Below are positions 22,416 to 26,695 of a DNA stretch of 34,077 bases, one piece after another (the first letter of the stretch is position 1; the number at the start of each line of letters is the position of its first letter). Source of the DNA: a virus (lineage: Duplodnaviria; Heunggongvirae; Uroviricota; Caudoviricetes); the IMG/VR virus record IMGVR_UViG_2547132421_000005; one strand, given 5' to 3'. Below the pieces are notes generated by a model. The model was given only the letters and a program-made list of their open reading frames with translations, was not told the DNA's origin and ran no database searches. Position numbers and translations under genes: made by a program.

Positions 22416-23204
22416 ATGAGCGAGAAATTAAAGATAGTCTATCGCCCATTACAAGAATTGTCACCGTATGCGCACAACGCCAGGACGCACAGTACTGAGC
22501 AGGTGGCACAACTGGTAGAAAGTATTAAGCAATTCGGCTGGACTAATCCGGTGCTGATTGACGAAAAGGGCGAAATTATTGCGGGTCACGGTCGTGTTAT
22601 GGCGTCTGAAATGCTCAAAATGGATTCTGTTCCGGTCATTGTTCTGTCTGGCCTGACGGATGAGCAGAAAAAGGCGTACCGCCTGGCAGATAATCGCCTA
22701 CCGATGAATGCTGGCTGGGATGAAGATCTGTTGCGGATGGAGCTGTCGGACCTAATCAATGCTGATTTTGATGTCTCCCTGACAGGCTTCGGCCCGACAG
22801 AAATTGATGAACTGTTGACGGATGTTTTGCCCGGTACAGGAAATAAGGAGGAGCCGTATACGACGAAAATTGATACGCCTGTTTATGAGCCGTCGGGCGG
22901 TAAACCGGATATCAGTGAACTGTACGACGATACGAAAACTCAGGAGCTGATCAGCCGGATACGTTCGGCGTCCCTTGAGCCTGATATTGAGAAATTCCTC
23001 CTGTGTGCGGCAGAACGTCACACGGTGTTTAATTTCAGCAGAATTGCGGACTATTACGCTCATGCCCCCGCTGAAATTCAGTGCCTTTTCGAGGAGTCGG
23101 CGCTGGTGATCATTGATTATCAGCAGGCTATTGAAAATGGATTTGTCCGAATGACGCAGCGCATGGTGGCGATCATGCATAGCGGGGAGGAGGAATATGC
23201 GTGA
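22416..23204 (+). CDS. ParB-like nuclease (ParB N-terminal/sulfiredoxin-fold) domain protein, 262 aa
   Basis: Track ORF; NPVLIDEKGEIIAGHGRVMA contains the ParB-N GxGR-type motif. Confidence 0.7.
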   Translation: MSEKLKIVYRPLQELSPYAHNARTHSTEQVAQLVESIKQFGWTNPVLIDEKGEIIAGHGRVMASEMLKMDSVPVIVLSGLTDEQKKAYRLADNRLPMNAGWDEDLLRMELSDLINADFDVSLTGFGPTEIDELLTDVLPGTGNKEEPYTTKIDTPVYEPSGGKPDISELYDDTKTQELISRIRSASLEPDIEKFLLCAAERHTVFNFSRIADYYAHAPAEIQCLFEESALVIIDYQQAIENGFVRMTQRMVAIMHSGEEEYA

Positions 23205-24060
23205 TGATTTTTGCGCCTTTATTCTGACTCACGGGCGACCGGACAAAGTTCTGACTTACCGGACGTTGCGTCGTGCTGGCTATACCGGGAAAATTTTTAT
23301 CGTTGTTGATGATGAAGATAAGACACGGCATCAGTACATGGCTGAATTTGGTGAACAGGTGCTGGTATTTTCCAAAGCAGATATTGCCAGTCGTTTTGAC
23401 GAAGCCGATAATTTTGGTGACCGCCGCTCAATTTTTTACGCCCGTAATGCCTGTTTCGACCTGGCAAAACTGGTCGGGTGTAAATACTTCATTCAGCTCG
23501 ATGATGATTATCACGAGTTCCAGTTTCGGGTGGATCGCAACTATGACCAGGCCTATTTCCCGATAAGGAAACTGGATGCGATCCTTTCTGAAATGCTGGC
23601 GTATTACGAATCAATACCCGCGCTTTCCATCGCTATGTCGCAGGGCGGGGATTTTCTTGGTGACAATGGCGGCCATGCTTCGTGGGTGAAACGCAAGGCA
23701 ATGAACAGCTTTATCTGTTCGGTTGATCGACCGTTCTCATTCATGGGGCGCATTAACGAGGATGTGAATACGTACACGAATCTCGGTCGCCGTGGTGAAT
23801 TGTTTATGACGATCGGTGCTGTCCAGTTAGGGCAGAAACAGACGCAGAAAAACAGCGGCGGAATGACCGAGCTGTATCTGGATTCCGGGACCTACGTTAA
23901 AAGTTTTTATTCCGTCATTTATGCGCCGTCGTGCGTAAAAATCTCACTGATGGGCGCCAGCCATAAACGCATTCACCATCAGGTCACCTGGAACAACGCT
24001 GCAGTAAAAATCCTTCACGAAAAATACAGGAAGAAGACACCCTGCATATTAATGGGGTGA
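23197..24060 (+). CDS. Hypothetical protein, possibly a GT-A-fold nucleotide-sugar transferase, 287 aa
   Basis: Track ORF; N-terminal FILTHGRPDKVLTYRTL...IFIVVDDEDK and later IQLDDDYHEF resemble the GT-A signature with a DxD motif. Tentative. Confidence 0.45.
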   Translation: MRDDFCAFILTHGRPDKVLTYRTLRRAGYTGKIFIVVDDEDKTRHQYMAEFGEQVLVFSKADIASRFDEADNFGDRRSIFYARNACFDLAKLVGCKYFIQLDDDYHEFQFRVDRNYDQAYFPIRKLDAILSEMLAYYESIPALSIAMSQGGDFLGDNGGHASWVKRKAMNSFICSVDRPFSFMGRINEDVNTYTNLGRRGELFMTIGAVQLGQKQTQKNSGGMTELYLDSGTYVKSFYSVIYAPSCVKISLMGASHKRIHHQVTWNNAAVKILHEKYRKKTPCILMG

Positions 24061-24063
24061 CAA

Positions 24064-24315
24064 ATGATTCCGTATTCGAAAGTCGAGTCTCTGGCAGCGT
24101 GCCGGATGACTGCACAACAAATCGCTGACGTACTGGATGTTGATCTGAACCGACTGAAAGAAAATCGGGAAGCAATGACAAATTTTTACGCGTCCATCCG
24201 TAAGGGCAGAGCGAAAGGTGAAGCCGAGCTACGGGCGGCATTGTTTAAGCTTGCCAGAAAAGGGGATGCCTTTGCCCTGCGCGAACTACTCAGGGTGGAT
24301 AAAAATCAGGACTAA
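24064..24315 (+). CDS. Hypothetical small protein upstream of the terminase, 83 aa
   Basis: Track ORF; helix-rich, basic; tightly coupled to the following gene. Confidence 0.45.
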   Translation: MIPYSKVESLAACRMTAQQIADVLDVDLNRLKENREAMTNFYASIRKGRAKGEAELRAALFKLARKGDAFALRELLRVDKNQD

Positions 24316-24318
24316 CTG

Positions 24319-25413
24319 ATGAGCAGACCGGACTGGGGGGCGTTGCAGCAGGAGTATATTGCTGAATACACCCGCTCCGGTATATCTCCGGTGGCATGGT
24401 GTGAAGCAAGGGGACTGAATTACGCAACAGCCCGTCGTTACATCAAAAAACCTCCGAAAAATGCGCAGACAGAAATGCGCAAAACTGCGCAAAAAAGTGC
24501 GCAGAAAAAATCTGCGCAGACTGCACAAAAGCGGAACGGAAAATCTCAGGAAAAAAAGCCAGTATCCGATGCGTACCTGAATGAGGGCGATGCGGAAGAA
24601 ATTTCGTTCTGTCCCGATGAATTCGGCGTTTCTGACCAGCAGGCGAAATTCGCAATGCTGGTTGCCCAGGGGAAAAAACTCGTTGAGGCATATCGCCTGG
24701 CAGGATACGAGTCAGAGGGGAATGCGGCCTACGTAACCGCCAGCCAGCTCCTAAGAAATCCTAAGGTTTTTCGTGCTATCAGCTACTTCCGCAATCAGTA
24801 CCAGAAACGCTATACCGCAGACCTGGATTTACTGGTGAGTCAGTTGATGGCCATTGTCCAAGCCGACCCCAATCAGTTGGCACAATTTCGCCGTGTTAAC
24901 TGCCGTTATTGCTGGGGCGAGAATCATCACTACCAGTGGCGCGATATAGCAGAATTCGATAAGGCAGCGGCGCAGGCCTCCAGAGATGGCAAACCCGAGC
25001 CGGAATATGGTGGCCTTGGCTTTGTTGATAACGCCATACCCAATCCGGACTGCCCGAAGTGCTGCGGTGAGGGAACGGGGCAGCTTTATATGGCTGATAC
25101 CACTCTGCTTGATGGGGATGCGCGGCAATTATATGCAGGGGCAAAGCTCGGAAAATTTGGTGTTGAGATCCTGCTGGAGGATAAGGCTGCCGCCCGGCGT
25201 GAATTGTTGCGTTTGCTTGCTGCTGGCGGGGCTTTATGTGCAGATAAGCGGCTACAGGAACTGGAAATTGAACGGCGCAGAATGGAAAACCAGAAGCTGC
25301 GCAAAGAGATCGAAACGGTGGAGGATAATGAACATCCCCAACCTGTTGCGATCAATATTAATGTGGTTGATGCCAGAGTAAGGAGTGATGAAGATGATCT
25401 CTCCGACGCTTAA
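24319..25413 (+). CDS. Terminase small subunit (candidate), 364 aa
   Basis: Track ORF; N-terminal HTH-like region (ARGLNYATARRYIKK) typical of TerS; immediately upstream of the terminase large subunit. Confidence 0.6.
   Translation: MSRPDWGALQQEYIAEYTRSGISPVAWCEARGLNYATARRYIKKPPKNAQTEMRKTAQKSAQKKSAQTAQKRNGKSQEKKPVSDAYLNEGDAEEISFCPDEFGVSDQQAKFAMLVAQGKKLVEAYRLAGYESEGNAAYVTASQLLRNPKVFRAISYFRNQYQKRYTADLDLLVSQLMAIVQADPNQLAQFRRVNCRYCWGENHHYQWRDIAEFDKAAAQASRDGKPEPEYGGLGFVDNAIPNPDCPKCCGEGTGQLYMADTTLLDGDARQLYAGAKLGKFGVEILLEDKAAARRELLRLLAAGGALCADKRLQELEIERRRMENQKLRKEIETVEDNEHPQPVAININVVDARVRSDEDDLSDA
24461..24531 (+). repeat. Five to six tandemly spaced TGCGCA(G/A)A units inside the 5' part of the terS gene
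   Basis: atgcgcagac...atgcgcaaaa...tgcgcaaaaaa...tgcgcagaaaaaa...tgcgcagact...tgcacaaaag seen directly; encodes the low-complexity stretch TEMRKTAQKSAQKKSAQTAQK. Confidence 0.6.
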
Positions 25414-26695
25414 TGTGCCTCAGGCGCGATTTCTTTCAATGCCCCACAAATTTAAAGCCTATGTCGCTGGTTTTGGCTCGGGTAAAACATGGATTGGGTG
25501 TGGTGGCATATGCAAGGGGATTTGGGAACATCCTGGTATAAATCAGGGATATTTTGCGCCAACGTATCCCCAAATTCGCGATATTTTTTACCCTACAGTG
25601 GAAGAAGTTGCTGCTGACTGGGGATTGAATGTAAAAATTAATGAGGGAAATAAAGAGGTTCATTTTTATTACGGACGTCAGTATCGGGGAACCACTATCT
25701 GCAGAACGATGGAGAAGCCGCAAACGATCGTCGGTTTCAAAATTGGTAATGCGCTGGTGGATGAACTGGACATTTTGCCGAAGGAAAAAGCCAGAACAGC
25801 GTGGCGCAAGATAATTGCGCGTATGCGTTATAAGGTTGATGGACTTCGCAACGGTATTGACGTTACAACCACGCCGGAAGGATTCAAATTTGTCTACGAG
25901 CAGTTTGTTAAAGCCGTGCGTGAAAAAACAGAGCTGGCCTCACTGTATGGTCTGGTGCAGGCATCTACTTTCGATAATGAAAAGAACCTGCCAGCAGATT
26001 ACATTCCTTCGCTTCTTGAGTCATACCCTCCAGAGCTGATTAAAGCCTATCTTCGAGGACAGTTTACTAACCTGACAAGTGGTACTGTTTACCATCAGTT
26101 TGACCGGAAACTGAATAATTGCGAAGAAGTGGAGCAGCCAGGGGAGCCGATTTATATTGGGATGGATTTTAACGTTGGAAAGATGGCGGGGGGCGTCCAT
26201 GTACTGCGTTTGGGGCTTCCATGTGCGGTAACTGAAATCATCAATGCCTACGATACACCGGATATGATCCGCATCATTAAAGAACGCTTCTGGCTGTATG
26301 ACGGGAATGATTACCGGAAAGTGAGGGAGATTTATATTTATCCAGATGCTTCCGGAGATTCCAGAAAATCAAGTAACGCAAGTACGACGGATATAGCCCA
26401 GCTTAAGCAGGCTGGTTTTAACGTTGTGGTGAACAGCTCGAACCCGCCAGTAAAAGATCGCGTTAACTCAATGAATGCAATGTTCTGCAATGCCAATGGC
26501 GAACGTCGCTATAAAGTTAATGTGAAGCGTTGTCCGGTATATGCCGAATCTCTGGAGCAACAGGTCTGGGATGATAAGGGGGAGCCTGATAAAAAATCAG
26601 GCAACGATCACCCGAATGATGCCGGAGGCTATTTCATCGTTAAGCAATTCCCTATTATCAAACCGACCGGAAGAGTCACATCACTTCGGATTTAA
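25385..26695 (+). CDS. Terminase large subunit, 436 aa
   Basis: Track ORF; Walker A-like AGFGSGKTW near the N-terminus; conserved position upstream of portal. Start codon uncertain. Confidence 0.8.
   Translation: MMKMISPTLNVPQARFLSMPHKFKAYVAGFGSGKTWIGCGGICKGIWEHPGINQGYFAPTYPQIRDIFYPTVEEVAADWGLNVKINEGNKEVHFYYGRQYRGTTICRTMEKPQTIVGFKIGNALVDELDILPKEKARTAWRKIIARMRYKVDGLRNGIDVTTTPEGFKFVYEQFVKAVREKTELASLYGLVQASTFDNEKNLPADYIPSLLESYPPELIKAYLRGQFTNLTSGTVYHQFDRKLNNCEEVEQPGEPIYIGMDFNVGKMAGGVHVLRLGLPCAVTEIINAYDTPDMIRIIKERFWLYDGNDYRKVREIYIYPDASGDSRKSSNASTTDIAQLKQAGFNVVVNSSNPPVKDRVNSMNAMFCNANGERRYKVNVKRCPVYAESLEQQVWDDKGEPDKKSGNDHPNDAGGYFIVKQFPIIKPTGRVTSLRI

Follow-up and report, generated by a model that had tools for sequence, protein, structure and literature searches.

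How the small subunit of a phage terminase (TerS) recognizes its own DNA has been called unclear and controversial, and sequence-specific binding has proved difficult to demonstrate with P22, Sf6, SPP1 and SF6 (PMC9611059). The closest described counterpart of the locus treated here is the packaging (pac) site of phage P1 with its pacase PacA/PacB (Sternberg and Coulby, 1987; Skorupski et al., 1994; both as summarized in PMC10028697). This site occupies 161 bp inside pacA and contains seven hexamers with Dam sites, and synonymous recoding of the hexamers lowered the titre about 9-fold (PMC10028697). We have analyzed a window of 34,077 nucleotides, i.e. the whole stretch registered as IMG/VR virus record IMGVR_UViG_2547132421_000005, which is a Rac-like lambdoid Escherichia coli prophage with trkG upstream, and have focused on an array of TGCGCA hexamers inside the 5' part of its terS gene. 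With a probability of about 0.7 in our estimation, this array (24457-24531) is recognized at the DNA level by the TerS that the phage encodes, and represents either the pac site or the TerS-binding part of it.

Hexamer array in terS and comparison with known packaging sites

The features of the terS gene to which we refer below are the following, and the counts given for single hexamers concern 47 unique sequences of the E. coli type, which were used for examining variation within the type.

24319..25413, + strand: terS, terminase small subunit of 364 amino acids (Pfam Terminase_2, PHROG 51)
24319..24450, + strand: N-terminal domain of 44 residues with three helices, helix-turn-helix (HTH)-like (MSRPDWGALQQEYIAEYTRSGISPVAWCEARGLNYATARRYIKK), common to all 160 loci collected by it
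24421..24447, + strand: predicted recognition helix, residues 35-43 (YATARRYIK), the third helix of the AlphaFold2 model
24433-24435, + strand: codon 39, Arg (CGT), inside the predicted recognition helix
24451..24600, + strand: linker rich in Lys, Ala and Gln that connects the N-terminal domain to the Terminase_2 core, a protein segment of low constraint whose coding sequence contains the array
24457..24531, no strand: hexamer array with A-rich spacers, candidate pac recognition site, inside the 5' part of terS
24462..24467: hexamer 1, TGCGCA, in the frame xxT GCG CAG (N-A-Q), unchanged in 47/47 sequences
24476..24481: hexamer 2, TGCGCA, in the frame ATG CGC AAA (M-R-K), TGTGCA in 11/47
24486..24491: hexamer 3, TGCGCA (T-A-Q), without substitution in the 47 and lost in one with a deletion, with the top score (20.6 bits) of a position weight matrix (PWM)
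24498..24503: hexamer 4, TGCGCA (S-A-Q), last base G in 11/47
24513..24518: hexamer 5, TGCGCA (S-A-Q), one substitution and one deletion among the 47
24522..24527: hexamer 6, the degenerate TGCACA (T-A-Q), exact TGCGCA in 27/47
25298..25303: isolated TGCGCA (context AAGCTGCGCAAAGA) near the 3' end of terS, 785 bp past the array, PWM score 16.6 bits, unclustered

The assignment of the gene to terS, which the original prediction had made from the letters alone, agrees with a match to Pfam Terminase_2 (PF03592; amino acids 123-321, E value 1.9e-9, 38.7 bits against a cut-off of 26.1), with a full-length match to PHROG 51 'terminase small subunit' (E value 8.7e-75) and with the RefSeq label 'terminase small subunit' in near-identical E. 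coli genomes. Of 5,426 complete E. coli genomes, 906 contain this TerS type, in most cases with an identity of 90-95%, and a few phage records contain it as well; the vB_EcoS records are prophages reported from clinical-isolate genomes.

The array had been described as five to six copies of the 8-nt motif TGCGCA(G/A)A within about 70 bp. This description stands, because five exact TGCGCA, all of which fit the 8-mer, and one TGCACA span 66 bp at +143..+208 of terS. The spacing of 11-15 bp given for them was too narrow, the actual start-to-start distances being 14, 10, 12, 15 and 9 bp. The low-complexity peptide encoded there (...NAQTEMRKTAQKSAQKKSAQTAQK...) is as it was originally written. The first hexamer starts 27 bp past codon 39, and the second is read in a frame (M-R-K) other than that of the remaining copies (x-A-Q); this second copy is dispensable or weaker, judging from the TGTGCA found at its place in the relatives listed above.

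In the entire window TGCGCA occurs 13 times against 14.4 expected, a count close to chance, and therefore the unusual feature is the clustering and not the total. The maximum number of TGCGCA per 70 bp is five, as compared with one to three in 300 first-order Markov simulations. With the peptide (residues 45-72) fixed and synonymous codons drawn from the late genes of the same phage, five or more hexamers appeared in 2 of 40,000 trials (P ~5e-5). A PWM trained on relatives not belonging to the E. coli type gave its five best scores in the window (15.8-20.6 bits) at the sites of the array; the scan detected one block only, with no second hexamer block besides the isolated site at 25298. The position of that isolated site is occupied also in two of the E. 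coli-type phage loci (L001 and L004), and its membership in the recognition site is uncertain.

We compare this locus with P1 more in detail. In the annotated P1 genome (NC_005856), the pac cleavage sites and a site for integration host factor (IHF) lie inside pacA, and TGATCA/G occurs at pacA +193, +200, +212 and +227 and at +323, +335, +346 and +374 (spans +193..+232 and +323..+379) in two frames. The two systems resemble each other in that the site lies inside the small-subunit gene, soon after an N-terminal segment reading ..NTARRYLR in P1 and ..ATARRYIK in the window, and in that a palindromic TGNNCA hexamer (TGATCA in P1, TGCGCA in the window) is repeated in more than one frame with a spacing near a helical turn. 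The PacA N-terminus (W3...NLNPNTARRYLR) can be aligned colinearly with the N-terminal domain of TerS over about 41 residues, though weakly (hhalign E value 5.5e-5, probability 66%), and BLASTP of full-length TerS against PacA found the ..TARRY.. helix only (E value 0.099). No similarity of TerS to PacA was detected beyond the first ~41 residues, and none was found by BLASTP between the large subunit TerL and PacB (best E value 0.8). Accordingly, membership in the P1 terminase family was rejected: the N-terminal residues align weakly, and the cores and large subunits do not.

The layouts also differ. P1 has two blocks, of four and three hexamers, which flank the IHF site and the cut sites, whereas the window has one block of five to six, and no IHF consensus (with one mismatch or less) was found across 23494-25482, i.e. 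within about 900 bp. With this result and the single block in the PWM scan, a bipartite P1-like layout in the window was rejected. Furthermore, the P1 hexamers carry GATC and cleavage is Dam-regulated, whereas GATC was sought at 24455-24535 and is absent from the array. By analogy, the array may work in the manner of P1 pac while standing outside the P1 terminase family.

Other packaging sites show fewer likenesses. In the lambda family (lambda, 21 and N15), the R sites of cosB are bound by the winged-helix N-terminus of Nu1/TerS, and packaging specificity depends on residues of the recognition helix, which co-vary with the site sequence (PMC4669245). This system therefore provides a precedent both for multiple short TerS-binding copies next to the terminase genes and for helix/site co-variation. 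In contrast to the window, where the sites lie inside the coding sequence, no IHF consensus is near and no cos site has been described, cosB is located upstream of the TerS gene beside cosN, with fixed cos ends and an IHF bend, and the window TerL belongs to Terminase_6N/6C and is not of the lambda type (GpA). The pac site of SPP1/SF6 (pacL-pacC-pacR, G1P) is similar in the Pfam family of the TerS core, which is Terminase_2 in both cases. There, TerS carries N-terminal HTH domains on an oligomeric ring with multiple contacts flanking the cut, and its binding in vitro is reported to be weak and largely sequence-independent (PMC9611059); in the window family, by contrast, a sharply defined hexamer has been conserved. 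P22, a headful lambdoid phage of enterobacteria, also has pac inside terS (gene 3), but this is a single asymmetric 22-bp site with a TerS of another family, as opposed to a hexamer array.

Conservation of the array and its association with the N-terminal domain

A protein homologue search with full-length TerS as a query gave near-identical E. coli proteins only. By tblastn, distant relatives were found in Klebsiella prophages, Yersinia vB_YenM phages, E. coli PHB10 and Providencia PSTCR3. The first ~44 residues are common to all of them, and the hexamer array follows directly in all, although the TerS proteins are only about 36-42% identical. The motif is written differently from one relative to another: Klebsiella terS has six TGCGCA in three reading frames (T-A-Q, L-R-T and K-C-A-E), and Yersinia and Providencia terS have TGCGAAT repeats with inverted copies. 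In RothC, Pmp11 and phiARM81mr, only the N-terminal domain is in common and it is joined to a quite different TerS body; their arrays consist of TGCGAAT, of nine TGCGAA in two frames and of seven TGCGCA, respectively. A domain-profile search yielded 174 proteins, and all 120 listed had lengths of 44-81 amino acids, which extend about as far as the array region; these fragments were used for the AlphaFold2 alignment and are unsuited to a census.

We have therefore collected loci by the domain itself from IMG/VR and from one genome per species. The resulting 160 loci, together with the earlier phage loci, gave 89 non-redundant ones. In these 89 loci, TGCG[AC]A and its complement occur at 67 per kb at +120..+180 from the ATG and at about 0.7 per kb in the 1.5-kb flanks, an approximately 100-fold difference. 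The hexamers fall in frame 2 (380 times), frame 1 (93 times) and frame 0 (28 times); 81 of the 89 loci use two or more frames and 15 use three, and the encoded peptide changes with the frame (A-Q, L/M/V-R-x or C-A). Synonymous positions are fixed to the motif: within the arrays, 93% of the Ala codons are GCG and 94% of the codons before them end in T, as compared with 26% and 30%, respectively, in the remainder of these genes. The linker peptide varies between relatives while the hexamers persist, even in frameshifted copies of terS (e.g. L066). Within the E. coli type (47 sequences), no part of terS varies less than the N-terminal domain and the array.

Because several frames are used, synonymous sites are fixed and the motif is kept at ~40% protein identity, the constraint acts on the DNA and not on the peptide. 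The array is under DNA-level constraint, which is the outcome of the comparison of DNA and protein conservation among related prophages that the original prediction had suggested. An explanation by the peptide only was rejected on the basis of the reading frames, the synonymous sites and the codon resampling. We also note that several loci are frameshifted within the array (L066, L083, L110, L120, L126 and L160); hotspots of frameshifting, genuine or due to sequencing error, may be the runs of A6-A8 that separate the hexamers.

The N-terminal domain adjoins the array in Escherichia, Klebsiella, Providencia, Proteus, Yersinia, Pantoea, Xenorhabdus, Aeromonas, Pasteurella and Vibrio, and the neighboring genes and TerS cores differ among these host genera. 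When 81 full-length TerS proteins were classified, three main core classes were obtained, and both motif types, TGCGCA and TGCGAA, were present in each class. Since the unit of domain and array is joined to these three unrelated core classes, the motif goes with the domain and not with the core; the array is obligatorily associated with the N-terminal domain.

This domain has the consensus MAKPDWGxLQxxFLxxHAxxGISPKDWCEAQGLNYxTA[R/K]RYIK across the TerS relatives. The AlphaFold2 model has helices at residues 6-20, 24-31 and 35-38, with a predicted local distance difference test score (pLDDT) of 83-88 over residues 11-40, and the linker (residues 41-80; pLDDT 48-59) is predicted to be disordered. 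Most of the top fold matches by Foldseek are HTH DNA-binding proteins, all at non-significant E values (0.6 or more), and Pfam HTH_29 and HTH_23 match the domain below threshold only; no sequence similarity was detected between the window TerS and solved TerS structures. The domain is a candidate HTH-like DNA binder.

The motif type co-varies with residue 39 in the third helix. The 77 loci with Arg39 contain 421 TGCGCA and 6 TGCGAA/TTCGCA, and the 12 loci with Lys39 contain 72 TGCGAA/TTCGCA and 2 TGCGCA; residue 39 is the sole column of the domain that separates TGCGCA loci from TGCGAA loci. In addition, each array is homogeneous for its own hexamer variant across frames, for which linkage is insufficient and a sequence-specific, trans-acting reader is required. 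The obvious candidate for this reader is the adjacent N-terminal domain of TerS.

Three further groups of data bear on the pairing of domain and array. The TerS of Actinobacillus phage pPE4 (L003) has a core 78% identical in amino acids to that of the window and a different N-terminus, and at the equivalent place (2853-2899 of that locus) it has different repeats, GTTTCCAC/GTGGAAAC, with GTTTCCAC occurring twice and being followed by two inverted GTGGAAA(C/G); this looks like a different reader/site pair in the equivalent position. In Rac-SA53 (L002, 2990-3070), terS has become joined to another gene through a deletion (annotated as 'gpOterS; fusion of two genes by deletion') and the N-terminal domain is gone; of the five hexamers left, three carry mutations (TTCGCA, TGCGCT and TGCCCA), a single case consistent with a relaxation of constraint after loss of the reader. 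In a reverse scan of IMG/VR for three TGCGCA separated by 3-10 bases, at least 120 stretches were found. Among the matches listed, 77 were within 330 bp downstream of the domain, and some of the remaining stretches were GC-rich tandem repeats. Others followed different HTH-type TerS N-termini with an Arg-rich third helix (e.g. ..DWESVERDYSAGLLSLREIAAKYDTKESSIRYKANQNDW..), in the following positions of the respective loci.

L182, 2121-2147: TGCGCA array after a distant HTH-type N-terminus
L252, 657-689: the same arrangement
L269, 6757-6789: the same arrangement
L298, 276-308: the same arrangement
L297, 2307-2331: the same arrangement

Because arrays follow these other N-termini, the layout of an HTH followed by a hexamer array may extend beyond the family analyzed here.

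A separate observation concerns terS genes of the Klebsiella type, in which two or three further TGCGCA form a second block about 150-200 bp past the first, within the conserved core residues V-A-Q-A-I-A-Q...V-R-T. It lies at 1859-1903 in L006 (+359, +371 and +397 of terS) and is present also in L007, L071, L101, L113, L114 and L136, and this bipartite layout recalls HEX4/HEX3 of P1. It does not follow the N-terminal type consistently: in the Lys39 loci L159 and L162 its hexamers are changed to TGCGAA (V-A-N-E-I-A-N), L010 and L144 keep TGCGCA, and in L098 and L106, which have Arg39, the first position of the second block is V-A-N-E already.

Packaging model and alternative explanations

The gene for the large subunit follows terS.

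25385..26695, + strand: terL, terminase large subunit, presumed nuclease and motor (Pfam Terminase_6N, E value 4e-32; Terminase_6C, E value 3e-11)

The RefSeq start of terL is the equivalent of 25394. TerL shares 85% identity with its counterpart in a Klebsiella prophage whose terS is of the same kind, and 40-51% with the large subunits of Kagunavirus, Jerseyvirus and Dhillonvirus. Packaging by headfuls has been demonstrated in jerseyviruses (K47) with PhageTerm and pulsed-field gel electrophoresis, and their TerL was grouped with that of P1 in a published tree (PMC10783031); a remote relationship between TerL and PacB is thus conceivable. From the homology of TerL to that of headful packagers, we infer that this prophage probably packages by headfuls as well, which agrees with the original assignment of the head module to a non-lambda, headful type.

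In the mechanism that we consider, the N-terminal domains of an oligomeric TerS would each bind one TGCGCA, the copies being arranged about one helical turn apart (9-15 bp). TerS bound to the array would mark concatemeric phage DNA and recruit TerL, which would make the first cut nearby and start a headful packaging series. The roles of TerS as the reader and of its binding in the initiation of packaging, the position of the cut and the headful mode are all read from sequence comparison. The candidate pac site put forward in the original prediction has gained support in this way from the DNA-level conservation, the coupling to the domain, the kinship of TerL and the P1 precedent.

Several points weigh against this assignment. 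Hexamers 2, 4 and 6 are polymorphic within the E. coli-type sequences. The HTH assignment of the domain depends on a model of moderate confidence and on non-significant fold matches. In the literature on pac sites and on these phages, we found no mapped ends, TerS binding or cleavage for any phage of the family, and with other pac phages, attempts to demonstrate sequence-specific binding of TerS in vitro have met with difficulty (PMC9611059). Regarding residue 39, the DNA of the loci in three pairs (L109/L092, L010/L147 and L126/L104) is identical or nearly so as far as about codon 35, past which the similarity breaks off abruptly. Only ~20 bp separate helix 3 from the array, and the two have thus been swapped as one recombination block with breakpoints around codon 35. 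The association of residue 39 with the motif would be expected of a co-adapted reader and its site, but because of this linkage it may also arise without direct readout, and in view of the block exchange we give it less weight as separate evidence of such readout. The loci are, moreover, not phylogenetically independent, so that Fisher P values overstate the association. Lastly, P1 PacA has an ARRY helix and reads TGATCA, and therefore residue 39 alone cannot set the specificity.

All of the DNA-level evidence fits any function that needs TerS bound at this place, and TerS might bind the array for another purpose, such as an operator limiting its own or late-gene expression or a cosB-like anchor for fixed ends. 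The lambda-like phages, which use repeated TerS-binding R sites beside the cut site with helix/site co-variation (PMC4669245), give this possibility a model. We regard it as unlikely: TerL is of the Terminase_6 type and nearest to headful packagers and not to the lambda-like cos terminases, no promoter-like site is present at or near the array, and P1, the sole characterized system of this layout, uses it for pac cleavage. It is also imaginable that the reader is another sequence-specific protein, i.e. a host protein, TerL or the product of an 83-aa open reading frame (ORF) upstream of terS, and that the link to the domain is merely physical. Helix 3 and the array recombine together and co-variation alone does not identify the reader; the arrays after distant HTH-type N-termini, too, make a common external reader conceivable. 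Those N-termini, however, also have an Arg-rich third helix; the array adjoins the domain in ten genera with differing neighbors and TerS cores; there are two homogeneous motif types, each with one helix variant; and the 83-aa ORF, annotated in the E. coli-type loci L001 and L004, is not annotated in the other phage relatives examined. An external reader is for these reasons less probable still than another use of bound TerS.

Explanations without any reader are very improbable. The peptide is of low complexity and predicted to be disordered and the copy number varies between relatives, as would be expected if the array were a slippage by-product of the Lys/Ala/Gln linker and the similarity of copies reflected recent duplication. 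Such an origin is at odds with the differing frames and residues, the irregular spacing of 9-15 bp, the synonymous sites fixed at ~40% protein identity, the result of the codon resampling and the retention of the motif in frameshifted genes. Just as little is to be expected of a single-strand structure, in which the hexamers would pair in mRNA or antisense hairpins with T-runs would act as terminators. The RNA fold of 24445-24545 is indeed stable (-32.3 kcal/mol, z = -5.3) and the minus strand of the array (24462-24529) has four predicted hairpins of the terminator type, but pairing is automatic with a repeated palindromic hexamer and the paired copies differ between loci. Those TGCGAA-type arrays that have few or no usable inverted copies fold no better than shuffles (z = +0.6 for Pmp11, -0.7 for L005, -0.5 for L159 and -0.2 for L140) and keep their hexamers; there is no Rfam match, and no compensatory changes preserving pairing were seen. 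We judge the RNA fold and the antisense hairpins to be a by-product of the palindrome and the A-rich spacers. A reading by methylation or restriction, basing on the GCGC within TGCGCA, which is an FspI site, was set aside: the TGCGAAT of Lys39 loci is neither palindromic nor GCGC-containing. Recognition by TerS in packaging is the explanation that we prefer among these.

A wider proposal, which we hold tentatively and place slightly below an even chance, is that helix 3 and the array form a portable cassette of packaging specificity, moved as a block between unrelated cores in Enterobacterales, Aeromonas, Pasteurella and Stx-type phages. Its rule would be Arg39 with TGCGCA and Lys39 with TGCGAA(T), with variants such as GATCAT, and P1 PacA/pac would be a distant, Dam-regulated branch. 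If this is true, packaging specificity in a large share of enterobacterial pac prophages could be predictable from sequence, and it could be re-programmable by one residue together with synonymous changes. Our literature search found no description of TGCGCA repeats as a pac site or of the specificity of this family, and no mapped packaging for any of its phages; by analogy with P1, what appears to be new here is a probable hexamer-repeat pac site that is single-block, presumably not Dam-regulated and possibly carried on a portable cassette.

With its sharp hexamer, many natural variants and two motif types, each with one residue in the recognition helix, this family is an unusually clean case for the study of DNA recognition by TerS, and it has culturable members: the Yersinia vB_YenM phages, Klebsiella RothC and Providencia PSTCR3. 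Knowledge of a pac site and its orientation helps in predicting which chromosomal regions and which virulence or defence genes are moved by lateral or generalized transduction (PMC12829572), and it aids the design of packageable phagemids, as has been done with P1 pac (PMC10028697). This terS type is common in E. coli, and related domains are present in Stx-type phages.

Neighboring genes and related phages

The gene order around the array is ParB-like, glycosyltransferase-like, small ORF, terS, terL and portal. An ORF with a ParB N-terminal domain (22416..23204) lies upstream of the packaging genes. The second upstream ORF, within 22416-24060, matches the TET-associated glycosyltransferase family PF20691 (E value 5e-36) and PHROG 842 'beta-glucosyl-HMC-alpha-glucosyltransferase'; its RefSeq labels differ, some genomes having 'GREB1-related' and the near-identical prophage of WP8-S18 having 'frameshifted; internal stop'. 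The two ORFs may constitute a DNA-modification or anti-defence module. The 83-aa ORF (24064-24315) ends 4 bp before terS and matches the C-terminal residues 145-218 of the 319 of PHROG 309 'terminase small subunit' (E value 2.5e-22).

A related N-terminal domain is present also in Stx-type and Sepvirinae phages. In GER2 (L174) and PhiR12_3 (L179), the region 1501-1860 of the locus encodes a domain of ~53% identity with the helix TARRYIK and contains five to seven TGCGCA in three frames; in PhiR12_3 the hexamers are split into left and right groups, and the large terminase is annotated as 'T4-like headful'. In Japanese Stx2a-converting phages (L175 and L178; 1501-1680), the third helix reads TARTRIK and is followed by GATCAT repeats, which contain Dam sites as the P1 hexamers do. 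The terS ORF of these phages stops after 59 codons, at what may be the end of an insertion sequence.

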